From: Candidatus Zixiibacteriota bacterium
Lineage (GTDB): Bacteria; Zixibacteria; MSB-5A5; WJJR01; JAJRUJ01
Length of the DNA stretch: 64,000 nt
Reading direction: 5' to 3'
Assembly: GCA_020051695.1 (NCBI GenBank)
Contig: JAGVQM010000019.1
Location: 15,221 to 79,220 of the forward strand
The position numbers and the translations under genes were made by a program. Shown one piece after another: positions 4,030 to 46,202 of the stretch. The notes beneath the pieces are model-generated. The model did not search any database. It was not told the DNA's origin and saw only the letters and a program-made list of their open reading frames with translations. Position 1 is the first letter of the stretch; each line of letters starts with the position of its first letter.

Positions 4030-4032
4030 CGT

Positions 4033-4902: not shown

Positions 4903-4920
4903 GTTCCACCCGAGTTCAGA

Positions 4921-5547: not shown

Positions 5548-5556
5548 ATCCGTACC

Positions 5557-31475: not shown

Positions 31476-33380
31476 TTACAACTTGGCCAACTCCTCTTCC
31501 AGTCGGGTAACCAGCTTATCGACATGTTCGATAACCGCTTGGAATGTTTCAGGTTGCGTCAGGTCAACGCCCGCTTTTTTAAGCAATTCCATCGGGTAGT
31601 CGCTCCCGCCGGCTTTCAACAAGGTCATATAGCGATCGATTGCTGCCGCGCGGACTGCCTTGTCCGCCGACCTGATATCCTCGGCCAGCTTGGCCGAAGA
31701 GGCAAAACAGGTCGCGTATTTATAGACATAGTACGGCGTGCGGTAGAAATGGGCGATGCGGGTCCAGGTGGAACCGTACAGGTCGTCAAACACCACGGCA
31801 TCACCCTGATACGTCTTCCAAAGGCCGGTATACAATTCGGTCAGTGCATCGGCAGTGATCGGTTGGCCCTGTTCGGCCAGCTTATGCGCCTGCCACTCGA
31901 AATCGGCGAACATCACCTGGGTATAGAACGTGCCGATGATATTGTCGATGGTTTGCTGCAACAGGGCAATCCGCTCTTTGGGGTCCTGGCTTTTTTCCAT
32001 CATATAATCCAGAAACAATGCCTCATTGAGCGTGGAAGCCACCTCAGCCACGAAGATCGTATAATCGGCGGTGGCAAAGGGCTGGTTTTCATTGGACAAC
32101 ATAGTGTGCAGCGTATGGCCGGCTTCATGGGCCACGGTGAACGCCTCGCGGAGCGTTTCATTGTAATTCAGCAGCATATAGGGATGGACACCGTAGACAC
32201 CCGCGGAAAAAGCCCCGCCGCGTTTACCTTCATTTTCAAAGACATCGATCCACCCGCCCGCGAACGCCTGTTTCATTTTGGCCTGGTAGTCGGCGCCCAG
32301 CGGCGCGACAGATTCAACAATCCAGCCCGTGATCTCATCGTAATCATACACTTTGTCGAAATCCACGACCGGGATGGACCCGTCATAACCATGATACGTT
32401 TCCAGCCCCAGGGCTTTCTTGCGCAGTTGGTAATAGCGGTGTACCGGCGCGGTGCCCGCTTTGACGATGTTGACCAGGTTTTCGTATACGGAGGTCGGTA
32501 CATTATCGTCGTCTAAATAGGTCTCCAGCGTGGAGCCGTATTTGCGCGCCTGTGCCGTACCCCAGTCACGCTGCAGAATGCTGTTATAGGTCGCCGCATA
32601 CGTGTTGGCGTTGGCGTGGTATATCCCATAGTACTGCTGGAACGCCGCCGCCCGATCGGCCTGGTTGCGGTTGGTGGACAGGGTACTGTAATATTGTCCG
32701 GCCGTCATGGTGACCGTGTCGCCACCGGACAGGACGACCTCGGGGAATCTGATATCGGATGTAGACAATTCCTGATAAATCGAAGCCGGCGTACCCCGGA
32801 ACTGGCTGAAGTACGACAACAACTGTTCCTGTTCTTCGTTTAAGACATGTTGCTGCTGGCGATAGAGGTTCTCGATACTGTAACGGTAGGGGGCCAGTGC
32901 CGGTGTTTCGTTCAGCCATTTTTCGGTGGTCTCCCAGGGAATCGCCAGCAATTCCGGGTTGAACCAGGCCGTGGCCACGCTGAATTTGCCGAACAGGATT
33001 TGGACTTGCTGCAACTTGGCGGCGATTTCATTATTGCGTGTATCGGTTACGCTGGACAGCGACGGATACTGGTAGACTTTGTACGCCAGCATTCCCAGCG
33101 TGTCACCCAGCAAATAGGAACGCAACAACTGTTCCGGTCCCTGGGCCAGTGTTCCCTGTAAAGCGGCGTACCGGTCCATCACGTTCTCGAGCCGGGCCAG
33201 GTCTGCCTCCCAAGCGGTCCAGTCCGGATAAATGTCGTTGAGATCCCACTTGTACTGAGCCGGGATTTCAGCGCGCACCAGCGTGTTCGGTTTTGCCAAA
33301 GCTAGGGCGGCCATGGCCACTACCAGCACCATCGCGGCCAGCACGGCAATCACCGGGAACCGTCGGTTGTTCTGTTGCAT
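31476..33380 (-). CDS. pepF: Oligoendopeptidase F (M3 family), secreted or anchored
   Basis: HEAGHTLH zinc motif and M3B-like length. Start at ATG 33380 is preceded by AAAGGAG. The N-terminal hydrophobic segment VIAVLAAMVLVVAMAALALA is a signal or anchor. Confidence 0.85.
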   Translation of the reverse strand: MQQNNRRFPVIAVLAAMVLVVAMAALALAKPNTLVRAEIPAQYKWDLNDIYPDWTAWEADLARLENVMDRYAALQGTLAQGPEQLLRSYLLGDTLGMLAYKVYQYPSLSSVTDTRNNEIAAKLQQVQILFGKFSVATAWFNPELLAIPWETTEKWLNETPALAPYRYSIENLYRQQQHVLNEEQEQLLSYFSQFRGTPASIYQELSTSDIRFPEVVLSGGDTVTMTAGQYYSTLSTNRNQADRAAAFQQYYGIYHANANTYAATYNSILQRDWGTAQARKYGSTLETYLDDDNVPTSVYENLVNIVKAGTAPVHRYYQLRKKALGLETYHGYDGSIPVVDFDKVYDYDEITGWIVESVAPLGADYQAKMKQAFAGGWIDVFENEGKRGGAFSAGVYGVHPYMLLNYNETLREAFTVAHEAGHTLHTMLSNENQPFATADYTIFVAEVASTLNEALFLDYMMEKSQDPKERIALLQQTIDNIIGTFYTQVMFADFEWQAHKLAEQGQPITADALTELYTGLWKTYQGDAVVFDDLYGSTWTRIAHFYRTPYYVYKYATCFASSAKLAEDIRSADKAVRAAAIDRYMTLLKAGGSDYPMELLKKAGVDLTQPETFQAVIEHVDKLVTRLEEELAKL

Positions 33381-33435
33381 GTACTTGCTCCTTTGTTGGA
33401 TGGCCTCTGCCATCGATTCACATCCAAAACCTGAA

Positions 33436-33464
33436 AACATATCGTGCAGGACCGCTGTTGTCAA
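33436..33464 (-). promoter_or_regulatory. Candidate sigma70-type promoter for the pepF-like gene
   Basis: Minus strand reads TTGACA, 17 nt spacer, TATGTT, about 55 nt upstream of ATG 33380. Confidence 0.4.
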
Positions 33465-33634
33465 CCGATCCACCCAAATCGTTGACAATTAACATAATAT
33501 CGATTTCAGGGTTGGAAGGCCGGGTTCCCATGGGGACAGTTGCAATGGCCAACGGGTAGACTGTGGCTGTGGCTCGGAGCGAAAGCATGCGGGATTTGGT
33601 GTAGTGAATCGGGGGCTTTCCGCCAAAATCATTT

Positions 33635-34594
33635 CTAGTGTCGTTCCCGCCCAAAATTTTTACCTTTGGCGAAAACCAACGGCAGCAGCTGAGACGCCTC
33701 AATCAGGGTCATCCATAACCGCGCGGCCACGGCGATCATTGCCGCAAGTCCGGGCGACATTGTCGATGCCAGCAAAACGGACAGGACTCCTTCGCGCACC
33801 CCCAACCCTCCCGGCGCGAAGATCGCCAGGTAACCCAGCAAATAGGCGGCGCCGAAGCCGGCCGCTATTGCCCAGAACGAATCCGGTTGAAAGCCCAGAC
33901 CATGCAGCATACACCAAAACGACGCGCCGTAGAGCACCCACGAAATAACATAGAAGACCAGCAAAACCAGCGACCGGCCAAAGGACAATTGAATGACCAC
34001 CGGGGGCCGCTTGAAGAGGCGCAGACCGCAGTTGAGGATCCGGGCAAAGATGCCGGGATACAGAATGATCACAGCGAGCACGACCCCCAGGACCAATGGC
34101 AAAATCGATAACCCCTGAAAGATGGTGTGTCCCAGGACTGCCGTGACGAAAAGCGCCCCGGCGATCAGAGTAAATGCCTGATGCAATACTGTGCCGACAA
34201 ATGCCGTGGCCGTGGAATAGCCCTCCCGGTTGAGCATGTAAAACATCCCCATCATCGACCAGACCTTGCCCGGAAGGTATTTGCCGAGATTGGATAAAAC
34301 CGTAATGCGAAACGCCGTCCAGAATTTCAATCGCTGACCGGAGATGGAAAACAGCAAATACCGCCACAGTTGTACGAGACTGAGCGAAACCACCCATAAC
34401 AGCGCCGCCGAACAGGCCAGCCAGCTAAAATTGAACCTCCAGGGATAATCGCGGATGACATCCCATTGCGAGGCCATGGACCGCACGAGATAAAATAGAA
34501 CCGCCGCGAAAATCAGTATGAATATGACCGTGGTCAATACACCCTTCCGCGGTCGGGTCTGCTCGTGAATCCTAACATCGTTGTTATCAGGCAT
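33635..34594 (-). CDS. UPF0104 / lysylphosphatidylglycerol-synthase-TM-region-like flippase family membrane protein
   Basis: 319 aa polytopic protein. C-terminal LGYLAIFAPGGLGVREGVL motif is typical of this family. Confidence 0.65.
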   Translation of the reverse strand: MPDNNDVRIHEQTRPRKGVLTTVIFILIFAAVLFYLVRSMASQWDVIRDYPWRFNFSWLACSAALLWVVSLSLVQLWRYLLFSISGQRLKFWTAFRITVLSNLGKYLPGKVWSMMGMFYMLNREGYSTATAFVGTVLHQAFTLIAGALFVTAVLGHTIFQGLSILPLVLGVVLAVIILYPGIFARILNCGLRLFKRPPVVIQLSFGRSLVLLVFYVISWVLYGASFWCMLHGLGFQPDSFWAIAAGFGAAYLLGYLAIFAPGGLGVREGVLSVLLASTMSPGLAAMIAVAARLWMTLIEASQLLPLVFAKGKNFGRERH

Positions 34595-34741
34595 TTGTCC
34601 TGCTCGCTGCCCCCATGGTTTTCTCCGGGGCTTGTTGACTTCGAGGCCTATTTAATTAGAATGCAACATCTTAAGTCAAGGCAAAACCATTATGGGGAAA
34701 GGCGGCGGCGCGGACGACATCACCGGCGAAGAACCGTAGAC

Positions 34742-34815
34742 TACCCCCGGCTGGATTCGAACCAGCTACCCTCGGCTTAGAAGGCCGATGCTCTATCCAT
34801 ATGAGCTACGGGGGC
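34742..34815 (-). tRNA. tRNA-Arg (anticodon TCT)
   Basis: 74 nt cloverleaf read by hand: acceptor GCCCCCG/CGGGGGT, D arm GCTC..GAGC, anticodon stem TCGGC/GCCGA with loop CTTCTAA, T arm GCTGG-TTCGAAT-CCAGC. CCA is not encoded. Confidence 0.9.
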
Positions 34816-34919
34816 ATGTGCCGACGCTATAATACGTCAAATAGGCGCCGCCAATCAAGAGGAAATCCGGTTCAGGACAAGCTGTCCGGCGGAAAAGATT
34901 ATGGCTGATAACAAGTTGC

Positions 34920-35684
34920 CTAGTTAATAAAGCCCAGCCAGTCGCCGAACAGGAAGCGCATGCGGCCGACCAACAGGGAAATACGCGCCATCACCGTGTA
35001 GCCGAAACCCGCGCCGAAAGTGACCATCAGCAGGTAAATGCCCACGCGCGAGGCGGCGCCGAATGCGCCCTTGTGTTCTTTGGAGAAAAAGAAATACACG
35101 ATCCCGCAAAAGACGCCAAGGAACACCACGACTGCTGACAGCGAATCCGTCGTCAGGAAACCGCCGTCCGGCCCGAACACGGCCAGCGGGTTGATCGTGT
35201 TATAAATCTGCCCGATAAAATCCGAACGCAGGTAGCGGACAAAATTCAATCCGGCAGTGGTCCCGACAATAAACGCCAGCGACCAGCGGGAAATCCAACC
35301 AAGCTTCGAAGACAACCGCAGCAATAAAATAATGCCCAAAATCAGCGGCAGGAGATACCAGTAATTCGGTTCGGCATCGGCCACCGAGGGTAAAAATGGC
35401 CGTACCGCCGGCGGATGCAGCCGCCCGATCAGGTTGGGGACCAGTGTCGTCCAAAACCCCATCGACATCCAGTACGCCGCCGAGACCCCAACAAACAAAT
35501 GCTCGGCAAATTTATAGAACGGGTTGTCTTTATACAAAAAGCTCAGGATACATAAAGTCAGGAACGCGCCGAACGTGATATAAAACCCTTCAAACGCCCG
35601 GGCATCGCGCGCCATGATCGAGATGACGAACGCAATGATCAGCACGATAAATCCGATCAGATAGATGATAGCCCTGCGTTGCAT
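34920..35684 (-). CDS. Cassette subunit A, copy 2
   Basis: 254 aa polytopic protein with SFLYKDNPFYKF, FFSKEHKGA and FGYTVMARISLL. Start lies 3 nt after the B2 stop. Confidence 0.85.
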   Translation of the reverse strand: MQRRAIIYLIGFIVLIIAFVISIMARDARAFEGFYITFGAFLTLCILSFLYKDNPFYKFAEHLFVGVSAAYWMSMGFWTTLVPNLIGRLHPPAVRPFLPSVADAEPNYWYLLPLILGIILLLRLSSKLGWISRWSLAFIVGTTAGLNFVRYLRSDFIGQIYNTINPLAVFGPDGGFLTTDSLSAVVVFLGVFCGIVYFFFSKEHKGAFGAASRVGIYLLMVTFGAGFGYTVMARISLLVGRMRFLFGDWLGFIN

Positions 35685-35687
35685 CGC

Positions 35688-36548
35688 CTATTTCGCCCGC
35701 GCTTTCCGTTTCCGGTCGATGAAAAAGGTCGCGTTGCCGATAATGATGAACAGCATGATCACGATATGCGCCACCGCCTGCGGCCCCATCATCTCCAGCC
35801 CGCCGTGCGGCATTTGCTCAAAATCGGGATATTTCCGGATCATTTCCGATTCGTATTCGGCTGCGCCCTTGATCCCCCCCATCATGCCCAGCATCTGGTT
35901 GGGATAATACGGATACAACTGCGGCGCCGAGACCGCGGTCACCCCGCCGGCCACCGGTATGTTGCCGGGGTCGCCGGCAAAAAGGATCCACTCTTTCAAA
36001 CCGGGAAAGCCGCCGCCGAAGGCCGCGATTAAGTCCATGTTTTTCAAACTGCGGACATCCCGCATCATCGGAATGCTGTCAATCTGCGTGCCGTTGACAT
36101 CGGTAGTATACATCTTCTTCATGTCGGTAATGATCACGTTGATCAGGCCCTGATTACCCGCCTTGTATCCCAGATGGACATAATCCACACCGCAAACCTT
36201 ATCCGGGAAATGTGTCGTGACGATACGGTCGATCGTCTCATCGGCCAGATTTTGCCCCGTGCCCCACAACGCCATGACATACAATTTCAGATTTCGCCGG
36301 CAACAGTGATACATCACGGCATCAACCATCGGTTGCTGTTCGGGAACAGTGGAGGGATCGAAATCCAGCGAAATCAACACCCGCGAACCCTCAGGCAGGG
36401 TCTCGATTTTATCGAAGATCTTCTGCACAATCGGCGTAATCCGCTCGGGAAAGATGACATTGAACAACAGGGGAATAATTACGGACAAGGCAATAAACAA
36501 AAAGATTATCCGCCGGTCGATGTTCTTGATGGTATCGAAAAAGGCCAT
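35688..36548 (-). CDS. Cassette subunit B, copy 2
   Basis: 286 aa. NIDRR followed by a TM, DFDPSTVPEQQPM, GGIKGAAEYE, and a C-terminal TM with an RKRKARAK tail. Confidence 0.85.
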   Translation of the reverse strand: MAFFDTIKNIDRRIIFLFIALSVIIPLLFNVIFPERITPIVQKIFDKIETLPEGSRVLISLDFDPSTVPEQQPMVDAVMYHCCRRNLKLYVMALWGTGQNLADETIDRIVTTHFPDKVCGVDYVHLGYKAGNQGLINVIITDMKKMYTTDVNGTQIDSIPMMRDVRSLKNMDLIAAFGGGFPGLKEWILFAGDPGNIPVAGGVTAVSAPQLYPYYPNQMLGMMGGIKGAAEYESEMIRKYPDFEQMPHGGLEMMGPQAVAHIVIMLFIIIGNATFFIDRKRKARAK

Positions 36549-36552
36549 GGCG

Positions 36553-37341
36553 TTAATCCTTGTCCCGTCCGAGATATGTCCGTTCGATGCCCAGGATCAC
36601 CCGCAGCGACATCGAAATTACTCCCAGCGAAATGCCGATAATAATTGCCCGCTGGCCCGCCAGGTTGGGGACCCCCATAATCCAGTTGGTCAGGTTAGGC
36701 ACTTCGAAAAACGACAGCGCATCAGGCAGCCAGAACGTGGCATAGTACCCGGCGGGCGTCCGCCCCAGCAGAATGACAAAGGCAGTGACCAGCAGGACGG
36801 TGGCTTCCTTGTTTTTAGCCCGGAATGCGCGATACGACGCCGAGGCCACAAAAAAGGCCAGCAGCGCGTACATCGTCGCTTTCAGCGGAGTAAAGACATA
36901 CGTGAAAAAGTCCTGAAACACCGAGCCGGTGGCGGTGAGATTCCCCACCCAGCCGCCGGGGTTGCCGATTTTGAACAACCCGGCCCAGAGCATGACGAAA
37001 AATCCGATGAGTGTGACCATCGAGAAAAACCAGTCTTTGCCGCGCCGGTCCTCGATCCCGCCCATCGCATGGAAGGGAAACGCAATGAGCATCTTCAACG
37101 GCCAGAAGCCCCCCTGTTTCCTGCTTTCCGTGAAATAGAACTTCAACCCGCGGAAGAACCGCCCACTGTGGATCCGCACCAGGTTGCCGCCGCCGAGGAA
37201 GAAGGCAAACACGGCGATGATATCAAAATACAGGCTGAAATTTTCACCCAGCCGGCCGAACGGGTCATGCGGAATAAACGCCGCGATGATCAGCACCGCG
37301 CCGACGGTGAACGTGATTAATAATGGTACCTGCCGTTTCAT
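36553..37341 (-). CDS. Cassette subunit C, copy 2
   Basis: Start placed at ATG 37341 (MKRQVPLLITF), matching the C1 and C3 N-termini. FFVASASYRAFRAKNKEAT and GQRAIIIGISLGVISMSLRVILGIERTY. Confidence 0.85.
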   Translation of the reverse strand: MKRQVPLLITFTVGAVLIIAAFIPHDPFGRLGENFSLYFDIIAVFAFFLGGGNLVRIHSGRFFRGLKFYFTESRKQGGFWPLKMLIAFPFHAMGGIEDRRGKDWFFSMVTLIGFFVMLWAGLFKIGNPGGWVGNLTATGSVFQDFFTYVFTPLKATMYALLAFFVASASYRAFRAKNKEATVLLVTAFVILLGRTPAGYYATFWLPDALSFFEVPNLTNWIMGVPNLAGQRAIIIGISLGVISMSLRVILGIERTYLGRDKD

Positions 37342-37349
37342 GGTTTTGC

Positions 37350-38615
37350 CTATTGATTCAGCCGGAACAGATCGCGCACCCATTCGCCGGCGGTGGTGGC
37401 AATCCCGACATTAAACAATGACCCGATAGTCAGCAGTGTCACGCCGGCCAGGATCGCCAGCATCGCGATCATCTTGCCGACATCCTGCCCCTTCAACGAC
37501 CCCAGCTGGCGCGGTTCGTGCGACAGATAAGCCGAGGCGGCGAACAACTCCTCACCGATCAGCGTATAATCGCAGGCCGCGACAAAAAACGGCAGCTGTG
37601 CGGGCATCGCCGTGCCGGCGATCTGGATCGCCTCGATGGAATGGCCGGTCTCGGCCATAATCAGCGATTCGGCGAAAAACGCGCCGAGATAGAAACAGGT
37701 CGCCGGCCTTTCGCGCACCATGATCCCGTCCACCGCCGCGACATACCCGAACTGTTCGTCGGTGACATACTGCACATAATCATCCGAGTATGCATCGGGG
37801 CGCCCGGCGGCCAGATAGGCCTCTTTAATCGACTCGCGCGCGGTGGTCATCACAATCGAGCGTGAAGTCGGGACAAACAACTTGGAATCATATTCGGCGA
37901 TGGTCTTGGCGATCCGCCCCAAGATCGTAATCCCGGCCACGGTCTGCACGTCGTCCATGTCCTGGATGCCGGGGATAAACAAAATCGGCCGCCCCATTTC
38001 GGTGGCGCGTCCGATCGCCTCGTCGACCGCTTCGAGTCCGGCGATTTTGCGGATAAAGAGTATTTTGCCCCTTTTGGCCGAGGCGATGAAATACCCGATA
38101 AACAACGAGATGATTCCACCGACGACAAACAAATTCAGGATATTGAAATTAAACCACTGCGCGGACGATCGGACCGGACCGATCACCGGCGAAGACGACG
38201 AGCCCCCGGCTGTCTGGGTCTCGATTCTGTAATAGAAATCCGTCCCCGGCACGGTCGAGGCATCAGTGTATCTTTTTTCTCCGGCCGAGGAAAACCCGGT
38301 CTCGCGAAACGGCCCTTCCGGCGATTCGGCGCGCAAAATGCGGTAGCCCGTGACCAGGTTTTCGCCGGGACGGTCATCGGCCGACAGCTCCCAAAAGACA
38401 TTGATCGAATGCCCTTCATCGGAAGGCGTGTCTTCCGCCCCCGCATTGACCGGCGGCGCAGGCCGGCGGACCGCGGCCATCATCCCCGCAACGCCCGTAG
38501 CGGCGGAATCGGCCGGCGCCGAATCGACAACCTGGGCGACCATGCCGGAAGCCGGCAGCAGCATCCCTGCCAGAAGACAGCAAAAAAGAATTTTGTGCAG
38601 CACCTTCATGGTCAC
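37350..38615 (-). CDS. Cassette subunit D, copy 2
   Basis: 421 aa. Signal peptide, FN3-like INVFWELSADDRPGENLVTGYRILR, a TM, GRATEMGRPILF, AESLIMAETG, LPFFVAACDYTLIGEELFAASAYL, and a C-terminal TM. Confidence 0.85.
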   Translation of the reverse strand: MTMKVLHKILFCCLLAGMLLPASGMVAQVVDSAPADSAATGVAGMMAAVRRPAPPVNAGAEDTPSDEGHSINVFWELSADDRPGENLVTGYRILRAESPEGPFRETGFSSAGEKRYTDASTVPGTDFYYRIETQTAGGSSSSPVIGPVRSSAQWFNFNILNLFVVGGIISLFIGYFIASAKRGKILFIRKIAGLEAVDEAIGRATEMGRPILFIPGIQDMDDVQTVAGITILGRIAKTIAEYDSKLFVPTSRSIVMTTARESIKEAYLAAGRPDAYSDDYVQYVTDEQFGYVAAVDGIMVRERPATCFYLGAFFAESLIMAETGHSIEAIQIAGTAMPAQLPFFVAACDYTLIGEELFAASAYLSHEPRQLGSLKGQDVGKMIAMLAILAGVTLLTIGSLFNVGIATTAGEWVRDLFRLNQ

Positions 38616-38639
38616 GACGTCAATTCAGTTTCAGACCGA

Positions 38640-39383
38640 CTAGTTAATCAATTGCAACCAATCACTCATGAGATAATCCATGCGGCCGATCAACAGCGAT
38701 AACCGGCTCATGACCGTATACCCGAATGATGCGCCGAACGTGAGCATCAGTGTCCAGATCCCGATTTTGGCCACCCCGCCGAATGCGCCTTTATGTTCCT
38801 TGGAAAAATAAAAATAGATCAGTCCGGAGAGCGTCCCGATGACCAATATTGCCTGAGAAATGGTCGCCCACAAGTCGAGATTCCCGGCGGCATCGTAACG
38901 CTGCAGCGGGCCAGCAGAGGCCCCCAGCTGGAGGATGCCGTTGGAAACAAAGTAATTGATAAAATACAACCCCGCCGTCGCGCCGACCACCACCGCCAGC
39001 GGCCAGCGGGAGATCCACCCCGCTTTGGGAAACAACCGCATCAGCATCAGGACGCCCAGAAGCCCGCCGATCAGCATCATCCACCGGTCATCCCATCCGC
39101 CGCCCTGCACGAACGTCGTGTGATAGGCCGCGCCGACCCCGACGAAGAGCTTGGAATACATATTCTGCCAGAATAATGAGACAAACCAATAGCCGGCGGA
39201 AATTCCCACAAATGCGGCTTCGGAAAACTTGTAATACGGGTTGTCTTTATACAAGAAGGAAAAGATACCGATGGTAAAAAACGCACCCAGGGTCACCGCA
39301 AGGCCCTGGGATGCGGCCAGGATCGCAAAAACGGCGATTCCGACGGCGATAACGATATAGCCGACTACTTTGGTGTTCATCAT
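38640..39383 (-). CDS. Cassette subunit A, copy 3
   Basis: 247 aa with SFLYKDNPYYKF, YFSKEHKGA and FGYTVMSRLSLL. ATGA overlap with the B3 stop. Confidence 0.85.
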   Translation of the reverse strand: MMNTKVVGYIVIAVGIAVFAILAASQGLAVTLGAFFTIGIFSFLYKDNPYYKFSEAAFVGISAGYWFVSLFWQNMYSKLFVGVGAAYHTTFVQGGGWDDRWMMLIGGLLGVLMLMRLFPKAGWISRWPLAVVVGATAGLYFINYFVSNGILQLGASAGPLQRYDAAGNLDLWATISQAILVIGTLSGLIYFYFSKEHKGAFGGVAKIGIWTLMLTFGASFGYTVMSRLSLLIGRMDYLMSDWLQLIN

Positions 39384-40237
39384 GTTTGCTTCCGCCGGCC
39401 ACCGGCAAAGTAGGCCACATTACCCACGATGATGAAGAGGATCACGATGATGTGGGCAAATGACTGGGATAACATGAATTTCGTGGCCTTGCCCAGGGTA
39501 CCGGCCAACTCTTCAAATTCCGAAGCGCCCTTGAGGCCGCCCAGAATCCCCCGGAGCTGCCCGCTTTCAAAATAGGGATACGCCAGCGGGGCCTGTACTG
39601 CTGTCGTCCCCCCCAATAATTGTACCCCGAAACGATCAACGCCGAATTGCACCCACTCCACAATACCCGGATATCCGGCGGAGACATTGATCACAAAGTC
39701 GATATTGTTAAAATTCTGCATTCCCTGCATCAGCGGTAACTCGGCGATTGGCGTGCCCCGGAAATCGCGCGGGAATGCCGCGGGAATCGACGAACCCATC
39801 CGCTGGATCACCAATTCATTGCCGGCCTGGAAACCGAGGTTGACCCAGTCGCGGCCATAGGTCAGCGTCTTGCCCTTCCAGATAATCGTTTCTCCGGGCA
39901 CCTCGCCCAGTACGGACTCCAAGGCGGCATTGGCCTGCTGCGGTCCCTGCGGCCACAGTCCCATGATGATCATCTTCAAGTCATGATCGAGGCAATACCG
40001 GATCGCCGTTATCGCCATCGGCTGCAATTCCGGCGCCGAGGGAGGGTCATAATCACAGGGAATGAGCACGCGGGCGCCCGGCTGCAGTCGCGCCAGTTCG
40101 TCAAAACCACGACGCACTTCGTAAGAAATCGTGGTCTTTTGGGAGATATTCAAAAATAACGGCAGGGTGACCGCAACGATGACGAACAGGAAAATAATCC
40201 GCCGGTCGATCTTCATCAATTTGTCCCAAAAACCCAT
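39380..40237 (-). CDS. Cassette subunit B, copy 3
   Basis: Start placed at ATG 40237 (MGFWDKLMKIDRRIIFLF), matching B1 and B2. The tracked 348 aa ORF adds 63 non-homologous residues that overlap C3. DYDPPSAPELQPM and GGLKGASEFE. Confidence 0.85.
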   Translation of the reverse strand: MGFWDKLMKIDRRIIFLFVIVAVTLPLFLNISQKTTISYEVRRGFDELARLQPGARVLIPCDYDPPSAPELQPMAITAIRYCLDHDLKMIIMGLWPQGPQQANAALESVLGEVPGETIIWKGKTLTYGRDWVNLGFQAGNELVIQRMGSSIPAAFPRDFRGTPIAELPLMQGMQNFNNIDFVINVSAGYPGIVEWVQFGVDRFGVQLLGGTTAVQAPLAYPYFESGQLRGILGGLKGASEFEELAGTLGKATKFMLSQSFAHIIVILFIIVGNVAYFAGGRRKQT

Positions 40238-40254
40238 GCCGTTCCTGCCTGTCA

Positions 40255-40917
40255 TCAATCGCCGCTGACAAATGTCCGTTCGATCCCCAGAATAATCCGC
40301 AATGATGTCGACATGATCCCCAGCGCGATGCCGATCATGATCGCCCGCTGCCCGGCGGTGTTGGGGATGTTCATCACCCAATCGGCCCAGTTGGACAACC
40401 ACAGCCAGTGGGGCAACTGCAACCATTCTTTGGTGATCATATCACCGACCGGCACCCGCCCCAGCATCACAAAAAATGCAGCCAACAGCAGCATCGTCGC
40501 TTCCTTGTTGCGGGCGCGGAAGGCCCGATAGGAAGCCGAGGCCACGAAAAAACCGAGAAGGGCAAACATCGTGGAGGACAGCGGATCATAGACATTATCA
40601 TAAATGAACATGAACCGCGTACCGGGCTCCTGAAAATTCGCTCCTCTGGAGAAAAAGATGCCGACGATAAATATTGCGGCAAAACCGATAATCGTCACCA
40701 GTGAATACATCCAGTCTTTCTTGCGCCGGGCAACCTTGAGCAACGACAATTTCATCAAGTTCAGCGCACCCAGCCAGATGGCAAAGGCCTGAATGATCCC
40801 AAACCAGTCGGAAAACCAGTCGGAAAACCGGGAAACCGGTTCGTGCGGCACGAAATATTGGAAGATGTACATGATCCCCACCACCGCAGTGATGATCAAT
40901 GGAACTTCACGCTTCAT
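40255..40917 (-). CDS. Cassette subunit C, copy 3
   Basis: 220 aa. MKREVPLII, FFVASASYRAFRARNKEAT and GQRAIMIGIALGIMSTSLRIILGIERTF. Confidence 0.85.
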   Translation of the reverse strand: MKREVPLIITAVVGIMYIFQYFVPHEPVSRFSDWFSDWFGIIQAFAIWLGALNLMKLSLLKVARRKKDWMYSLVTIIGFAAIFIVGIFFSRGANFQEPGTRFMFIYDNVYDPLSSTMFALLGFFVASASYRAFRARNKEATMLLLAAFFVMLGRVPVGDMITKEWLQLPHWLWLSNWADWVMNIPNTAGQRAIMIGIALGIMSTSLRIILGIERTFVSGD

Positions 40918-40950
40918 CTTCGCTCAAACCCTTCCCGTCTCCCCACGACG

Positions 40951-42195
40951 CTACACCTGGAACCACCCGGAAATATCCGCAATCTTAAATGTTCCCAGGA
41001 GCAAACCTGCGACAGCCGCGATCAAGATCAGTACTTTGGCCACGTCCTGACCCTTGACGCTGCCCAGTAATTTCGGTTCTTTCGACAGATAGGCCGAGGC
41101 GGCAAAAAGCTCTTCGCCAATTAATGTATAGTCGCAGGCCGCCACAAAAAACGGCAATTGAGAGGCATTCGCGGTGCCCGCGATCTGAATCGCACCGATC
41201 GCATTGCCGGTTTCGGCCATAATTAACGACTCGGCGTAAAACGCGCCCATATAGAAAATCGTCGCCGGTTTCTCGCGGACAAACAAGCCGTCCAGCGCAG
41301 CGGCATAACCGAACTGGTCATCGGTAAGATAACGCACGATGTCTTCGTTGAACGCATCCGGCCGGCCGACGTTCAAATAGGCCTCCTTCACCACCTCGCG
41401 GGAGGTGATCATCACCAGTGAACGCGAAACCGGAACATCCAATTGCGCATCGTACTCCGCGGCCAGTTTGGCGATCCGCCCCAGGATGGTCACCCCAGCC
41501 AGGGTCTGGACATTATCCATATCCTGTGTCCCGGGGATATACACCAGCTTGCGGCCCATTTCGGTGGCGCGCCCGACCGCCTGTTCGACTTCCGCCAGAC
41601 CGGCGATAGGCCGGACGTACAAATCCTTGCCCTTCTTGGCCACATTGATAAACCACAAAATCGAAATTCCGATTACCAGCACCCAGGGCAAAATCCGTGC
41701 GGTGCGAATGATATGAAACCACTGGCCGGAGGCTTTCGCGGCCCCGGAGAGCGGCGAAGCCACGCCGGCAAACAGTTTTTCCCCGGCCGGAGTGAACTTG
41801 CCGGCCAGGGCGGCCACCTTATAGTAATAATTTACCCCGTTGTCGACCTGGCCGTCGGTGAGCGTGGTCATTCCGGCGGTCGCGGAACCAACGGTATCAA
41901 ACGGCCCGTCGGGCGAAGTCGAACGCAAGATAATATACTTGGTGACATTTCTGCGGCCGGCAACATCATCGGCGGACAGTTCCCAACTGATAGTAATCGA
42001 TTTCCCGGCGTCATCAGGGGTATCCTGGGCTTCGACCGAGACAACCGGCGCCGGGGCTTCGAGTTGGGGCGGAGTTTCAGCCACAACGACCGTGGTCGAG
42101 TCGACGGGAGCATCCTGTGCCCAGGCAGGCGATGCCGCGCCACATACAGGAAAGACCAGCAGGAACAGGGAGATGGACAACGCTTTTTTCATCAT
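40951..42195 (-). CDS. Cassette subunit D, copy 3
   Basis: Start placed at ATG 42195 (MMKKALSISLFLLVFPVCGAASPAWA signal peptide). The tracked GTG at 42225 lies inside a terminator hairpin. ITISWELSADDVAGRRNVTKYIILR, GRATEMGRKLVY, AESLIMAETG and LPFFVAACDYTLIGEELFAASAYL. Confidence 0.85.
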   Translation of the reverse strand: MMKKALSISLFLLVFPVCGAASPAWAQDAPVDSTTVVVAETPPQLEAPAPVVSVEAQDTPDDAGKSITISWELSADDVAGRRNVTKYIILRSTSPDGPFDTVGSATAGMTTLTDGQVDNGVNYYYKVAALAGKFTPAGEKLFAGVASPLSGAAKASGQWFHIIRTARILPWVLVIGISILWFINVAKKGKDLYVRPIAGLAEVEQAVGRATEMGRKLVYIPGTQDMDNVQTLAGVTILGRIAKLAAEYDAQLDVPVSRSLVMITSREVVKEAYLNVGRPDAFNEDIVRYLTDDQFGYAAALDGLFVREKPATIFYMGAFYAESLIMAETGNAIGAIQIAGTANASQLPFFVAACDYTLIGEELFAASAYLSKEPKLLGSVKGQDVAKVLILIAAVAGLLLGTFKIADISGWFQV

Positions 42196-42210: not shown

Positions 42211-42241
42211 AAAAAAAATCCCCACCTGCTTTGAGGTGAGG
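42211..42241 (-). terminator. Intrinsic-terminator hairpin inside the 5' leader of the tandem cassette operon (candidate attenuator)
   Basis: Minus strand reads CCTCACCT-caaagc-AGGTGGGG (8 bp stem with one G.U), then A and T8, ending 15 nt before ATG 42195. No minus-strand gene ends immediately upstream of it. Confidence 0.65.
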
Positions 42242-42352: not shown

Positions 42353-42382
42353 AATATACCCCCCGCATATACCGCCTGTCAA
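42353..42382 (-). promoter_or_regulatory. Candidate sigma70-type promoter of the tandem cassette operon
   Basis: Minus strand reads TTGACA (42382-42377), 18 nt spacer, TATATT (42358-42353). This predicts a leader of roughly 150 nt. Confidence 0.5.
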
Positions 42383-42515
42383 GGCAATTATTCCCCGGAG
42401 AACCAATCAACGGCGGCTCTGCTGGCCGCTGATCAGTGCGGTGCATTTATCGAAAAACCTGTTGACATCCGGCCCCGTGCCCGCTTGCTCTAGGGGAAAG
42501 GATAGAGCGCAACTG

Positions 42516-43184
42516 ATGGCCGCGACACAAAAAATCGACGTCTACGAACAAGCCCTGGAGCTGGTCCGGCAACTTCATGCGGTGAACAAATATGAGGTGG
42601 ATGAGGAGGTGGCCGAGTGGCTGGCCAGCGAATCGGAAATCAACGCTGATTCCCCCAGCGGGCAATTCAACAGGATCATCGGCAGAATTTACGAGGGCAT
42701 GTTCAACGGCATTCAATCCATGCGGGAAATCGGGCCGGAATTGCTGTGGGGCCGCGCGCAGGACAAAGTCCGGGGCGAATCATATCATGCGCCGGACACT
42801 GCACAAAAGGAAAAAATACCGATCATCCACTGGCGGCTGCTGCGATTGTACTGGATGGTCCGGCTGGCCGCCGAGGAGTTGATCGAGCAAAAACCCCGCA
42901 CCCGGCTGGGCAAAGTCTTAATCGAAGTCGAGCACGACCTGCGCGAGGCGTTTGTCGAAACAAAAGAAGGCGTCAAGCTCCCGCTGGCCATGCGCCGCAA
43001 GAAACAGTGGGACCTGCTGGCCGATTTCGGCATGGGGCTGACGGTCGACCAGATTTACGATCTGCGCCCGCCGCGCTATGTCATCCACTGGAACACCGGC
43101 GAAAAGTTGTGGCTGGGAATAATCGTCGGAATCGTGATCGGTTTCGTGCTGGGGGTAATGCTGCTGTGGCCGTCGGGGCAGTAG
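42516..43184 (+). CDS. Hypothetical protein with a single C-terminal TM (tail-anchored topology)
   Basis: Start placed at ATG 42516, with AAAGGA upstream. The body is soluble and helical-looking, and the C-terminus is LWLGIIVGIVIGFVLGVMLLW. Divergent from the cassette operon. No family recognised. Confidence 0.5.
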   Translation: MAATQKIDVYEQALELVRQLHAVNKYEVDEEVAEWLASESEINADSPSGQFNRIIGRIYEGMFNGIQSMREIGPELLWGRAQDKVRGESYHAPDTAQKEKIPIIHWRLLRLYWMVRLAAEELIEQKPRTRLGKVLIEVEHDLREAFVETKEGVKLPLAMRRKKQWDLLADFGMGLTVDQIYDLRPPRYVIHWNTGEKLWLGIIVGIVIGFVLGVMLLWPSGQ

Positions 43185-43198
43185 CGCTTGCGCTGCTC

Positions 43199-46105
43199 CT
43201 ATAATTCTCCGTTGGCGTCGGTTTTAATGATGCTGAAATCAGCAGATGTGGCACCATGAGCGGTCATCCACCCGCTGATGATCAGACCACCATCGGGAGC
43301 TTCAATGACACCGGTGGCCCCATCACTTTCGGAATCACCGATGGTCCGTTCCCACAGGATCGTCGCAGTCGGACTTATTTTTGCCACGTACATATCGCTT
43401 TTGCCTGCGCCAAACGATTTAGTAGAACCAACAACAACAAAATTGCCATCCGAAACCGCAATGATCTTTGAAATCGCATCATCATTGCCGCCACCCAGAT
43501 AGAGTTCGTTGCGTTTATTGCCCAACGAATCAATCCATATTACATAACCATCTTTCATTCCGAAATACGATGCCTGGGTCCATCCGGCAATTACGTAATC
43601 ATCGATTCCATATTGAATCAGCGATTCGCCACTGTCATTGTAATAGTAGGCCCCCTGACCGTAATCTCTGCCCCACAAGTTTTTACCCTGCGCATCAGTC
43701 TTGGTAACAAACAAACCGACGCCAGCTATCATCAACCCGGTATCATGACACTGAATCACCGCATTGCCGCCATAGCCCGAATATTGCCTTTTCCAGGTTT
43801 CCTGTCCGATGGCATCAGTTTTGAACAAGAATGCTGCGGGGTTGCCTCCGACGGAGCCAGACAGAACATACCCACCGTCTGATGTTGCTGCGACAGATCG
43901 GCTGCCAGCCACCACCGTGGCACCGTCAACATAATGAAGGCGTTCCCAACCAATTGAACCGAAATCATCGATTCTGGCGATTACAACTCTGGTATCCCAT
44001 ACTAATCCCCCGCGTTCCCCCGATTCTCCGGCCGCGATATATCCACCATCCCATGCCGGGATTATTGAAAAGAGGTAATCGTCATAATCCGGTCCATGGC
44101 CAAAAACCCGTTCCCATGCCACTGTACCATCGGCGTTGACTTTAGTCGCGTAAAAATCAGAAGTCGACTGCGGTGAATAACTTGGACTCCAATAGGCAAC
44201 GCCATTTGGAATTGTGCCGACCGCCACCGCGCCACCCTCAGGGGTTAAAGTAATTGAGCGTGCTGCTTTCCTGCCAGTGCCTCCGATAATAGTATACCAA
44301 GTATTGGATAACGTTGTTGTTTTCGCCTCTGCCACATTGGAAAGTCCAGACCAATTTCCCGAAGTATCCGCCGTCTTCAGCGCTAAAAAATAATTCAATC
44401 CTGGAGTTAATCCGATTATCTCAAATGATTCCGCTTCGTGTACAGGTTTCGCAGGCCGTAATCCTTCTGCCGGAATCCCCTCACTCCATGTATCATCTGT
44501 AATCGGTGACGTTGCATAGCGCATGTCGTATTGAGCTGCCTGCCCCAAAAGACTATCGTCACCCGACGCGTTCCAAATCAAGGTCACCGAATTATGGCTG
44601 ACGGTTTGCGGGTACAGGTTCGTTATTGCTGCCGGAGGGATTGTGTCTGTTCCAGGTCGGGCGATTCCCAGCACATCATTCGAGAGAGGGGACCAATTCT
44701 GGACCTCATCCGCAGTTTTTATGGCAAAATGATAGGCGGTGTTTTTCGTCAAACCCGTTACCATGAGTGTTTCCGGGGAACCACTTGATAGAGGCAACGT
44801 AACACCGGGATAGGAATATAGTGCTCTGAAATTAGTTTCATTAATTACTGAAGTCGAGTATCGAAGATCGTATAAACTAGCCGTTCCCACATCGCCATCA
44901 TCTCCCGGCGCCGTCCAACTCAAGGTCAGCGATGTCAATGATGAATCGATAATCCGCAAATCAATGATTGCCCCCGGCGGCGTCCGGTCGATGCTCGCTG
45001 TCCGCGCCGCCAGTACGTTGGACATCGTCGACCAGTTCAGCATTTCGTCGCCGGTTTTCAGGGCAATATAATATTCAGTTTCACTCTGCAAACCGGAAAT
45101 CCTGATTGTGTCACCAGTTCCGGCGAACGATGGTTTCGGCAGATTTGGCGCGATTTGTGCATCGGGAAAATTCACTTCGTTCATCAGCCGGGGAGAATAA
45201 CGAATATCATAAAACGACGCTCGTCCCAGCGTGTCGTCATCACCCGGCGCCGTCCAGATCAACAAAAGAGAAGTGCTCGTCGTATCCAGAACTCTCAGAT
45301 CAGCAATCGGTCCCGGAGGCGTGGTATCGGCCGCCGTGGCGCCGATGATGACATTAGACATTGCCGACCAGTTCGGGACTTCATCGGCGGTTTTAATTGC
45401 AAAACAATAATTTTCGTTCGTGTCCAGGTCATAGAAAGTATACTGCTGCGTGCTGTCCGCCAGCCAGGGTGTCGGTGGATCGGCAACCTGTTTCGCATGA
45501 ATAAAATATTCGTCGGTAATCAGCGTGGTCGGTGAATAACGGATATCATATGCTGCGGCAGTCCCCGCCGAGCCGTCATCGCCGGGCACGGTCCAGCTTA
45601 ATTCAATGAAGGTATATCCGGCGTCAGTCACCCGCAAATCGGCAATTGCTGCCGGGGGGACAGTATCCAGGACAGCTTCTGTCGTGCCGGTGGCGATATT
45701 GGAGATCGCCGACCAGTTGGGCACTTCATCAGCCGCCTTGATCCCAAAATAATATGTTGTGTCCGGCAACAGCCCGAGGACCAGCATCGTCTCCGGCGTC
45801 CCCGCTTCCTGCGGGATCGGCAGACTGAACGGCTGCAGCGCCGAATCCCAGGTGGAATCGGTCAGGACGATGGAATGAAATCGGATATCATATTGGGCCG
45901 CCGTGCCGTTGGCGTCATCATCCCCGGGCGCGGTCCAGGTCAGCACCAGCGAACTGTCAGTGGGATTGATCGCCGCAAGATCGGTAATTTGTGCCGGGGG
46001 TGTGCTGTCGGGAATACCGGTGCCCTTGTCGGTTTTTTCCACGCCGCAGGACAAGACAAGCACGACGATCAAACCGGCGCCAATCAACGACTTTCGCAGT
46101 CGCAT
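43199..46105 (-). CDS. Large lipoprotein: five FN3-like repeats followed by beta-propeller-like repeats
   Basis: Start at ATG 46105 (MRLRKSLIGAGLIVVLVLSCG, lipobox LVLS|C). Five repeats of about 113 aa each contain W(T/N)APGDD..G.A..YD(I/L/M)RY and ..KTADEV.NWS. The C-terminal half has recurring DGGY(I/V)..G and W(E/K)R motifs. Confidence 0.8.
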   Translation of the reverse strand: MRLRKSLIGAGLIVVLVLSCGVEKTDKGTGIPDSTPPAQITDLAAINPTDSSLVLTWTAPGDDDANGTAAQYDIRFHSIVLTDSTWDSALQPFSLPIPQEAGTPETMLVLGLLPDTTYYFGIKAADEVPNWSAISNIATGTTEAVLDTVPPAAIADLRVTDAGYTFIELSWTVPGDDGSAGTAAAYDIRYSPTTLITDEYFIHAKQVADPPTPWLADSTQQYTFYDLDTNENYCFAIKTADEVPNWSAMSNVIIGATAADTTPPGPIADLRVLDTTSTSLLLIWTAPGDDDTLGRASFYDIRYSPRLMNEVNFPDAQIAPNLPKPSFAGTGDTIRISGLQSETEYYIALKTGDEMLNWSTMSNVLAARTASIDRTPPGAIIDLRIIDSSLTSLTLSWTAPGDDGDVGTASLYDLRYSTSVINETNFRALYSYPGVTLPLSSGSPETLMVTGLTKNTAYHFAIKTADEVQNWSPLSNDVLGIARPGTDTIPPAAITNLYPQTVSHNSVTLIWNASGDDSLLGQAAQYDMRYATSPITDDTWSEGIPAEGLRPAKPVHEAESFEIIGLTPGLNYFLALKTADTSGNWSGLSNVAEAKTTTLSNTWYTIIGGTGRKAARSITLTPEGGAVAVGTIPNGVAYWSPSYSPQSTSDFYATKVNADGTVAWERVFGHGPDYDDYLFSIIPAWDGGYIAAGESGERGGLVWDTRVVIARIDDFGSIGWERLHYVDGATVVAGSRSVAATSDGGYVLSGSVGGNPAAFLFKTDAIGQETWKRQYSGYGGNAVIQCHDTGLMIAGVGLFVTKTDAQGKNLWGRDYGQGAYYYNDSGESLIQYGIDDYVIAGWTQASYFGMKDGYVIWIDSLGNKRNELYLGGGNDDAISKIIAVSDGNFVVVGSTKSFGAGKSDMYVAKISPTATILWERTIGDSESDGATGVIEAPDGGLIISGWMTAHGATSADFSIIKTDANGEL
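44321..46000 (-). repeat. Five tandem, diverged FN3-like coding repeats (~340 nt period) within the lipoprotein gene
   Basis: Repeat units begin at ORF residues ~47, 160, 274, 387 and 500 (each TPP/VPP/IPP...I.DL). They are diverged at the DNA level. Confidence 0.75.
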
Positions 46106-46202
46106 CCCCACCTCCCGCCGAGCGCAAGTGTCCGGCATTACTACGATTCACTAGTAATAATACTACATGAATCGGGGGTGTCAACAAAAATCCAGGCGCC
46201 GA

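Follow-up and report, generated by a model that had tools for sequence, protein, structure and literature searches.

The eight tightly packed minus-strand genes at positions 34920–42195 of the window (the whole 64-kb stretch of DNA analyzed) encode two diverged copies of a four-gene cassette in the order D-C-B-A, and a third D-C-B-A copy lies on the same strand at 3388–6906. Judged from their sequences, the products of D, C, B and A are very probably the subunits of a single, obligate four-part complex in the inner membrane, with the architecture set out below. We refer to this complex, which is of a so far uncharacterized type, as the 'DUF6754 system'. Three ancient paralogous versions of it are present here: types I and II, which share one operon in tandem, and type III at a distance of 28 kb. 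Because the gene order is kept across phyla and no characterized match was found, the complex is a credible candidate for a new cell-envelope machine. The best explanation as a whole is a four-subunit DUF6754 complex with a coupling role, which we consider to have an even chance of being correct.

An earlier note on this DNA had described eight minus-strand genes as four protein types occurring twice in the same order, which the ORF listing and BLASTP bear out; its double copy holds for the tandem pair, but the count was incomplete, as the third cassette was missed. Start codons of the eight genes were refined against the homolog consensus and the database protein P0001, to which D2 is identical in sequence. 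All genes of the three cassettes lie on the minus strand. In the type I cassette, D1 (40951–42195, 414 aa), with a DUF6754 module at nt 40969–41727 (PF20539, E = 2.4e-117), is followed by C1 (40255–40917, 220 aa; six TM helices, motifs ASASYRAFRA and GQRAI..LGIER), B1 (39380–40237, 285 aa; predicted to comprise a TM helix, a periplasmic Rossmann-like domain, a second TM helix and a basic tail) and the polytopic A1 (38640–39383, 247 aa; motifs SFLYKDNPxYKF, FSKEHKG and FGYTVM.R), whose start overlaps B1 by 4 nt. The type II cassette consists of D2 (37350–38609, 419 aa), with FN3 at nt 38169–38450 and DUF6754 at nt 37419–38165 (PF20539, E = 2.9e-120); C2 (36553–37341, 262 aa; six TM helices), which has a basic insertion of ~42 aa between TM2 and TM3 compared with C1; B2 (35688–36548, 286 aa); and the polytopic A2 (34920–35684, 254 aa), the last gene of the operon, downstream of which lies tRNA-Arg(TCT) (34741–34816). 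The gaps from D1 to A2 are, in order, 33, 17, –4, 30, 8, 4 and 3 nt. The unlinked type III cassette contains D3 (5557–6906, 449 aa; FN3 with an insertion, and DUF6754 matching PF20539 at E = 7.5e-115), C3 (4921–5547, 208 aa; 35–40% identity to C2 and C1), B3 (4033–4902, 289 aa; 32–37% identity to B2 and B1) and A3 (3388–4029, 213 aa; 45–46% identity to A2 and A1), the last three being without Pfam matches.

Upstream of the eight-gene operon, a consensus scan located a candidate sigma-70-like promoter at 42353–42382 on the minus strand (TTGACA-18 nt-TATATT, 11/12 matches; pattern match only). The leader of ~150 nt (MFE –48.5 kcal/mol, z = –1.7) contains a terminator-like hairpin followed by U8 (42212–42241, minus strand) immediately before the D1 start codon, which is possibly an attenuator. 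The D1 leader had no Rfam match, and clear conservation of its hairpin was not found in four related leaders.

We compared the two adjacent cassettes at the protein and DNA levels. The BLASTP identities were 56% for D1 and D2 (E = 8e-145), 42% for C1 and C2 (E = 1e-62), 35% for B1 and B2 (E = 6e-65) and 44% for A1 and A2 (E = 1e-61), and neither BLASTP nor hhalign detected similarity among the four types. DNA identity between the cassettes was 67–74% and confined to patches, which rules out an assembly artefact and a recent duplication. Both have orthologs in other zixibacterial arrays, cassette 1 in their first cassette and cassette 2 in their second, and conserved type I, II and III cassettes are kept across these arrays, indicating that the duplication is ancient; the view that it is old and retained was thus upheld. 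The alternative that the repeat is artefactual or non-functional, in other words an assembly duplication, a set of pseudogenes or mobile-element cargo, draws on the repeated gene order and nothing else. We rejected it as having a practically negligible chance of being true, given that the ORFs are intact, the paralogs are only 35–56% identical, orthologous type I and II cassettes occur in the same order in many MAGs, the invariant motifs show purifying selection, the GC content is uniform and the neighbours are housekeeping genes without transposase or integrase.

In 80 loci, 119 D genes had 3 kb or more of sequence downstream; for 113 of them C, B and A come next, in this order, and the six exceptions were all assembly gaps or detection-threshold effects. 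The loci belonged to Zixibacteria, Acidobacteriota, Gemmatimonadota, Eisenbacteria, WOR-3, Coatesbacteria, Deferrimicrobiota and others, and D-C-B-A is accordingly a synteny unit conserved outside this genome, in at least six phylum-level groups. The earlier note had set this as a test of its reading, which was not refuted. All four genes are retained in every paralogous cassette, and natural B-A fusion proteins of the Rosetta-stone kind exist (P0254, P0257 and P0264). Conserved co-occurrence and order, a gene spacing of –4 to 33 nt and the B-A fusions together point to an obligate complex. Apart from two facultative neighbours, M and S (see below), adjacent genes are not conserved, and the genomic context therefore points to no pathway.

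Subunit D contains, in order, a signal peptide, FN3, a TM helix, the DUF6754 module of ~250 aa and a C-terminal TM helix, the arrangement previously proposed for it. A cleavable signal peptide with an A-x-A|Q site was predicted in D1, D2 and D3; FN3 was supported by both a sequence-profile and a fold match; and the PF20539 scores were 391 bits for D1, 400.6 for D2 and 382.9 for D3 against a gathering score of 27 bits, the modules matching end to end (profile positions 2–256 of 257; E 1e-115 to 1e-120). The cassette had also been called unrecognized, which is correct for A, B and C, for which no family was found, but not wholly for D, whose module has a catalogue entry as a DUF. The PF20539 entry carries no function, neither Pfam nor NCBIfam contains the families of the partners A, B and C, and our literature search found no paper mentioning DUF6754 or PF20539. 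Database homologs of D, a family of at least 8000 clusters at 90% identity, are named 'DUF6754 domain-containing' or 'fibronectin type III domain-containing'. In the model, DUF6754 is of the alpha/beta type and sits between two TM helices; its most conserved stretch has pLDDT < 50. A 22-sequence cross-phylum alignment (A10) contained 49 invariant positions in the module, with invariant acidic and polar residues clustered in loops after beta-strands (PG..DM, P.SRS, TD.QFGY, AES..AETG and CDYT..GEE). D1 and D2 share 72% identity in the soluble part of DUF6754 and 41% in FN3; the corresponding value for the B domain is 34%.

TM analysis agreed with the proposal that A and C are polytopic (together ~13 TM helices). 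Both carry invariant polar residues, and their motifs (KDNPxYKxxE and SKEHKG in A; YRAFRA and GIER in C) map to loop ends predicted to be cytoplasmic. B, whose family has 4522 representatives at 50% identity, is bitopic with a large domain, as had been suggested: the AF2 model of B2 (pLDDT 90.3) has TM1 at residues 12–28, a six-stranded alpha/beta domain at 56–224 and TM2 within a helix at 249–285, and charge analysis placed basic residues at both cytoplasmic ends. In the TM helices of B, the invariant columns are V23, P26, Q257, H261, G271 and N272, none of which is acidic. The assignment of FN3 and the B domain to the periplasm, and of the D module to the cytoplasm, is supported by the positive-inside rule and the signal peptides, and also by extracytoplasmic-type insertions in homologs, namely FG-GAP in the TM3–TM4 loop of C and CARDB in the B domain. 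The likeness of the B domain to RCK/KTN (TrkA-N) and generic Rossmann proteins is at the level of fold only; we rejected an RCK/KTN assignment on the basis of 5–10% identity, Foldseek TM-scores of ~0.3 and the lack of a conserved GxGxxG. Moreover, RCK/KTN is a cytoplasmic regulator of K+ transport, whereas the B domain is predicted to be periplasmic, between two TM helices.

These features could also belong to a membrane-embedded biosynthetic complex, by the logic of synthase-dependent secretion as in cellulose synthase BcsA-BcsB. DUF6754 would then be a new cytoplasmic catalytic domain, perhaps a transferase of glycosyl or other groups whose substrate is a lipid-linked or nascent polymer; A and C would provide the channel or flippase, and the product would be handled on the periplasmic side by B and FN3. 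The position of DUF6754 between TM helices, its invariant residues in loops after beta-strands, a level of conservation seen in active sites and a periplasmic alpha/beta domain on TM anchors would all fit, and GT-B halves occur among the structural matches of B, which are weak. FN3 domains are common in carbohydrate-active proteins, which also suits this reading. However, Pfam, NCBIfam and PDB profiles yielded no GT or other enzyme family, not even when a DUF6754-only profile was searched at E ≤ 10; sugar-nucleotide or polymer-export genes are not conserved nearby; and transporters and transducers have three to four tandem paralogs more often than synthases do. We therefore regard the biosynthetic explanation as unlikely.

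Profile searches covered Pfam and NCBIfam for the window proteins, Pfam for all alignment members, PDB profiles and PADLOC. Together with the structure searches, they assigned no subunit to a characterized complex and returned only FN3 and the uncharacterized DUF6754, so that this second test set by the earlier note did not refute its reading either; A, B and C had no family in Pfam, NCBIfam or PDB profiles. Walker A was absent from all 12 proteins, in line with the earlier note, which had seen no nucleotide-binding motif; CxxCH, MIDAS and conserved GxGxxG motifs were not found in the cassette proteins, and no transport, catalytic or cofactor motif was recognized in any subunit. Neither A nor C showed an internal inverted repeat of the kind that secondary transporters typically have, and the family alignments revealed no invariant mid-membrane Asp/Glu of the MotB/ExbD kind. 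Several known classes were accordingly rejected: an ABC/ECF transporter (no Walker A in the 12 proteins, no permease family in the window or in 79 family members); a Mot/Exb/Tol stator, including Zorya ZorAB (no MotA_ExbB match at E ≤ 1 for A and C members in Pfam, a bitopic B without an invariant TM Asp and zero PADLOC matches); an Rnf/Nqr/Mrp module (no family above threshold, no Cys clusters); and a known anti-phage defence system (no PADLOC-DB match at E ≤ 0.1 for any of the eight proteins). ABC ATPases were also absent among the conserved neighbours.

The cassette might still belong to a known class of transporter or stator but have diverged so far that sequence profiles miss the kinship; candidates would be an ABC-2/GldFG-type or ECF permease with its ATPase elsewhere, a Mot/Exb/Tol stator or an Mrp- or Nqr/Rnf-like module. 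The plan is similar (polytopic and bitopic subunits, a periplasmic domain, an operon without ATPase), isolated weak matches were seen to MnhG (C2, E = 0.0018, sub-threshold with 18 bits where the cut-off is 122) and TMD0_ABC (E = 2e-4, 5/22 members), and S carries an RnfC/NqrA-type barrel-sandwich domain. This explanation is nevertheless very improbable, since no such family was significant in the 79 family members or PDB profile searches, Walker motifs and a conserved TM Asp in the bitopic subunit are lacking, PADLOC, Zorya-type stators included, gave zero matches, and the Rossmann-like B domain is unlike those of ExbD, MotB, MCE and GldG.

We favour a DUF6754 system with a coupling role, to which a conserved cytoplasmic core combined with a variable periplasmic face most readily points. 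A protomer set very probably contains ~17 TM helices. Its periplasmic face comprises the FN3 of D and the Rossmann-like domain between the two TM helices of B, and the cytoplasmic face the extremely conserved alpha/beta DUF6754 module between the two TM helices of D. The 'engine' would be the cytoplasmic-face core, formed by DUF6754 and the invariant polar motifs of A and C, whereas the periplasmic face appears to evolve fast, homologs seemingly accepting FG-GAP propeller, CARDB and HEAT binding modules. FN3 and B may capture a periplasmic partner or substrate, coupling it to a conserved membrane or cytoplasmic step, and the three paralogs would serve different partners. A function as a substrate-specific translocase or a trans-envelope transducer is, on this sequence-based reasoning, a tentative proposal that falls short of an even chance. 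A receptor or adhesion-signalling complex without transport, in which ligands from the envelope or outside are bound by the periplasmic FN3, Rossmann and accessory modules and their state is passed on by DUF6754 to cytoplasmic partners, the ASKHA protein for example, would explain the variable periplasmic parts built from adhesion-type modules (FN3, FG-GAP, CARDB and HEAT), the conserved cytoplasmic module and the facultative ASKHA and barrel-sandwich neighbours. We consider it quite unlikely, as the polytopic A and C, with ~13 TM helices and invariant polar residues, exceed the needs of signalling, and no known output domain (kinase, GGDEF, HTH or receiver) was found in or beside the cassettes.

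The coupling complex could be energized in two ways. One, in line with the ion-gradient drive raised in the earlier note, is ion flow through the helices of A, C and B (invariant His, Gln and Asn in TM2 of B; Arg and Glu in A and C). The other, where encoded next door, is an ASKHA ATPase of the MutL/GlmL type that would work on the DUF6754 face together with a barrel-sandwich protein. Of the 54 loci with at least 4 kb of upstream sequence, 22 (~40%) have the genes for M, a MutL-type protein (PF13941, E = 2e-129), and S adjoining the cassette, in three different arrangements, and ATP coupling through a partner is hence an alternative. Neither gene is present within the 64-kb window; being missing from it and from ~60% of loci, M and S cannot be obligatory parts. 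An interaction of M-type ASKHA proteins with DUF6754 is conjectural. A new class of envelope-spanning machine, with a DUF6754/A/C engine that is ion- or ASKHA-driven and works on or translocates periplasmic macromolecules, is conceivable but more doubtful than probable. If it exists, it would be widespread in Zixibacteria and in phyla that belong or are allied to the FCB group; all four subunits would be dedicated to it, and the protein families of three of them are missing from Pfam; exchangeable FN3, FG-GAP, CARDB and Rossmann modules would select the partners; and types I–III would be specificity variants.

The resemblances to ion-driven transducers and to synthase-dependent polymer secretion lie in the way these systems work, and for the transducers in nothing else. 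Ion-driven transducers (TonB-ExbB-ExbD, TolQRA/Tol-Pal, MotAB and GldLM) share with the cassette polytopic and bitopic inner-membrane subunits, a TM-anchored periplasmic domain, an operon without ATPase and several paralogous sets per genome; however, the cassette has no MotA_ExbB, ExbD or OmpA-like matches and no invariant TM aspartate in B, its periplasmic domain is Rossmann-like and it has an additional large cytoplasmic DUF6754 module. The BcsA-BcsB type likewise places a cytoplasmic alpha/beta domain between TM helices, beside a TM-anchored subunit whose periplasmic domains are of the alpha/beta (flavodoxin-like) and carbohydrate-binding types, but the cassette matches no GT2, PilZ or other Bcs family, and the GT2 signature (D,D,D,QxxRW) does not stand out among the listed conserved D motifs, which were viewed without an explicit pattern search. 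Although no MCE, permease or ATPase family occurs in the cassette, mycobacterial mce1-4, Mla and ABC-2/GldFG are similarly repeated operons with full sets of membrane subunits and periplasmic domains, and their repetition is taken as sub-functionalization for different substrates. As for the ATPase neighbour, M differs from the GlmL/MutL reactivase-like ATPases in scoring below the NCBIfam GlmL cut-offs and in not being accompanied by glutamate or ornithine mutase genes. ASKHA proteins dock on envelope machines in the cases of PilM-PilNO, FtsA and MreB, to which the cassette loci that encode an ASKHA neighbour (~40%) may be compared.

The earlier note had described a D-C-B-A, D-C-B-A double copy of eight minus-strand genes, and this arrangement was borne out by the ORF map (32-45 kb) and by the paralog pairs obtained with BLASTP. 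Gene starts were refined against the homolog consensus and the database protein P0001. The array thus comprises D1 (40951-42195), C1 (40255-40917), B1 (39380-40237), A1 (38640-39383), D2 (37350-38609), C2 (36553-37341), B2 (35688-36548) and A2 (34920-35684), all on the minus strand. From D1 to A2, the spacers measure 33, 17, –4, 30, 8, 4 and 3 nt in this order. A sigma-70-like promoter, identified by a consensus match at 11/12 positions, is located upstream (42382-42353, minus strand), and a tRNA-Arg comes after A2. Because of the tight spacers, the upstream promoter and the tRNA-Arg following A2, the eight genes look like a single operon.

Between cassettes 1 and 2, the protein identities were 56% for D, 42% for C, 35% for B and 44% for A (BLASTP, E 1e-61 to 1e-145), and the DNA was 67-74% identical, in patches, with a uniform base composition. 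The patchy DNA identity and the uniform composition exclude both an assembly artefact and a recent duplication; accordingly, the old and diverged duplication claimed in the earlier note was upheld. Neither BLASTP nor profile-profile comparison (hhalign) detected any likeness among the four types, and the candidate kinships of A with C and of B with D were rejected, since hhalign gave none.

Several features were observed around and within this array. A terminator-like hairpin followed by U8 (42212-42241, minus strand) lies between this promoter, a strong one, and the D1 start and could be an attenuator; this candidate matched nothing in Rfam and was not clearly conserved among related leaders. 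C2 carries a basic insertion of ~42 aa in the predicted cytoplasmic TM2-TM3 loop, which C1 lacks and which is also found in the type II C orthologs of three close relatives (L001, L002 and L056). Directly upstream of the operon region, the protein encoded at 43199-46138 (minus strand) is 979 aa long and comprises an anchor or signal sequence at the N-terminus, ~5 FN3 domains and a repeat region at the C-terminus; it is not kept beside cassettes elsewhere, with only a partial match in locus L049. The ORF at 42441-43184 (plus strand), divergent from the operon promoter, encodes 247 aa that include a TM helix at the C-terminus; it matched no Pfam family, and homologs were absent from the 80 related loci. 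The operon and the tRNA-Arg are followed downstream by a lysylphosphatidylglycerol-synthase TM-region family protein (33635-34594, minus strand) and an M3 oligoendopeptidase F (31476-33488, minus strand), and further upstream is an S49 (SppA-type) peptidase (46203-47642); none of these three is conserved with the cassette.

When the eight proteins were compared with the whole window using tblastn, a second, separate site was found, namely a complete D-C-B-A cassette at 3388-6906 (minus strand), 28 kb from the tandem pair. It consists of D3 (5557-6906; DUF6754, E 7.5e-115), C3 (4921-5547), B3 (4033-4902) and A3 (3388-4029), all on the minus strand, and its neighbours are housekeeping genes (an EPSP-synthase-fold enzyme, ArgRS, TrpF, an MFS transporter and an ERCC4 nuclease). 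This cassette, the most divergent among the three in the window, most probably represents paralog type III. In other Zixibacteria, type III stands third in the tandem array; in the window, the third cassette is unlinked.

At 90% identity, the homologs of D fall into at least 8000 clusters, mostly of zixibacterial MAGs, and the B profile yielded 4522 representatives at 50% identity. The nearest relatives are zixibacterial MAGs, with D identities of 69-73%. Within the best 80 of >566 loci, from a scan that took one genome per species, the D-C-B-A order was near-universal by tblastn: of the 119 D genes for which at least 3 kb could be read on the downstream side, 113 had C, B and A after them, and the other six were explained by scaffold gaps, C genes split by FG-GAP and one short hit. 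The D of L024, at first sight an orphan, proved to be next to a scaffold gap. The neighbourhood check suggested in the earlier note therefore supports a synteny unit, in carriers labelled Zixibacteria, Ignavibacteria, Acidobacteriota, Gemmatimonadota, Eisenbacteria, WOR-3, Coatesbacteria, Deferrimicrobiota and 'Deltaproteobacteria'. Genomes outside Zixibacteria mostly contain one cassette, and zixibacterial arrays contain two to four; Zixibacteria retain three to four copies that have become differentiated. Comparison with the window paralogs indicated a constant array order of type I, then II, then III, in which cassettes 1 and 2 correspond to types I and II, respectively; the single cassettes of other phyla were closest to type II. 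Given this fixed order and the affinity of the single cassettes to type II, the cassette duplication is older than the radiation of these lineages.

We clustered 438 flanking ORFs and found no further neighbour that is conserved and shared with the window. Two genes absent from the window, designated M and S, adjoin the first cassette in 22 of the 54 loci with enough upstream sequence (~40%; for example, L018:1984-3885, minus strand; L050:14579-15712, plus strand; and 20+ other loci). M encodes a ~615-aa MutL/GlmL-type ASKHA protein (PF13941, E 2e-129) that scores below the NCBIfam GlmL cut-offs, and S encodes ~375 aa that comprise a barrel-sandwich domain of the RnfC/NqrA type and a KOW-like C-terminus. 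Three arrangements (M-S-D, divergent s-m|D and DCBA-M-S-D) are spread over Zixibacteria, Acidobacteriota and Coatesbacteria. As candidates, M and S could provide energy or regulation from the cytoplasmic side. The results speak neither for nor against the ion-gradient drive that the earlier note considered possible, and the ASKHA neighbour may offer an ATP-linked alternative. Because both genes are missing from the 64-kb window and from ~60% of loci, they cannot be obligatory parts of the DUF6754 system. The S family comprises at least 8000 clusters, unannotated save for a JGI mislabel, 'NusG'. In addition, zixibacterial arrays have, immediately after their last cassette, a gene for a small, very basic protein of 112-136 aa (motif EARREYQRRYYQ.HK.KAKEYQRQYN; L013:15417-15824 and 13 other loci); no such gene was detected in the window.

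Apart from FN3 and DUF6754 (PF20539), no recurrent or significant family was detected in Pfam or NCBIfam (all cassette proteins of the window, and Pfam for 79 members of the A, B and C alignments at E <=1), in PDB profiles (A, B, C and D, and DUF6754 alone at E <=10) or with PADLOC. The view that A-D are unrecognised thus holds for A, B and C but not wholly for D, whose FN3 and DUF6754 are catalogued; precomputed Pfam annotation of homologs likewise had an entry for D only. Neither Pfam nor NCBIfam contains the A, B and C families, so these are missed by routine annotation. Weak single-sequence matches to AveC_like, TMD0_ABC, MnhG, TraX, IF-2B and Hol_Tox failed to reappear in other members of the families and were rejected for this reason, and a defence system was rejected, as PADLOC gave no match. 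The profile searches proposed in the earlier note placed no subunit in a characterised complex, and we regard it as very improbable that D-C-B-A belongs to a known class of transporters or stators and has diverged beyond recognition. The literature search retrieved no mention of DUF6754 or PF20539 and nothing relevant on GlmL with ASKHA or on Zixibacteria with FN3.

In the AF2 models, DUF6754 is an alpha/beta domain with five strands, whose best-conserved stretch (AESLIMAETG...QLPFFVAACDYTLIGEELFAASAYL) has pLDDT <50. In B2 (pLDDT 90.3, pTM 0.85), TM1 is followed by a Rossmann-like domain of six strands and then by a long C-terminal TM helix with RKRKARAK at its end, a layout from which the domain is predicted to be periplasmic, in agreement with the bitopic topology proposed earlier. 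A motif scan of A-D of the window found no Walker A, heme, Fe-S, MIDAS or conserved GxGxxG motif, consistent with the absence of nucleotide-binding motifs noted previously. A redox complex was rejected because heme and Fe-S motifs are absent and Cys and His are few. Six TM helices with both termini inside are predicted for C; in type III C of L008 (12935-14710) and L017, a ~400-aa FG-GAP/VCBS beta-propeller occupies the TM3-TM4 loop before the ASASYRAFRA helix, which fits an outside location of that loop. A has ~7 hydrophobic segments, and B-A fusion proteins would fix its N-terminus on the cytoplasmic side. Internal repeats were not detected in A or C.

For the DUF6754 part, D1 and D2 share 72% identity with each other and 56-61% with D3; the corresponding values are 41% and 31-35% for FN3, and the B domains of the window paralogs share 33-38%. 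Some B homologs carry large insertions after helix alpha2, where one permissive loop accepts CARDB Ig-like repeats, HEAT repeats or helical segments, and one homolog has a tandem double B domain (variants P0293, P0314, P0248, P0344, P0244, P0254, P0257 and P0264, three of which are B-A fusions). Because DUF6754 is more conserved than FN3 and B, and because B tolerates insertions, the periplasmic face is predicted to be plastic and made of binding modules and the cytoplasmic face nearly frozen. Invariant polar residues of A (D53, N54, E61 and H204) and C (R171, E253 and R254) are mostly at predicted cytoplasmic helix ends, and Q257, H261 and N272 are invariant in the interior of B TM2.

Our analyses show D, C, B and A as a self-contained, ancient and predicted four-subunit inner-membrane complex with a defined topology and three copies in the window, in which a conserved cytoplasmic-face core would be coupled to variable periplasmic binding modules. 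This combination points most naturally, if tentatively, to a putative substrate-specific translocase or trans-envelope transducer. Among the rival readings, a biosynthetic, synthase-like complex appears unlikely and a pure receptor quite unlikely.

The family is common rather than rare, with thousands of B and D representatives, and its carriers include several phyla, with few cultured representatives or none, that are dominant in sediments and soils. A defined unit, topology and paralog types, together with facultative ASKHA and barrel-sandwich partners, make its role an experimentally tractable question, and the D-C-B-A order provides a synteny rule for annotating thousands of 'hypothetical proteins'. 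Of the known-system definitions tested, those of ABC/ECF transporters, Mot/Exb/Tol stators, Rnf/Nqr/Mrp modules and anti-phage defence failed, and the likeness to RCK/KTN domains was that of a generic fold. With these outcomes, and with three of the four families missing from curated libraries, the D-C-B-A unit appears to be new in kind, A, C and isolated DUF6754 having been compared by sequence profiles. If the four proteins do form a machine unrelated to known transporters, stators and synthases, it would be a new building block of the bacterial cell envelope.
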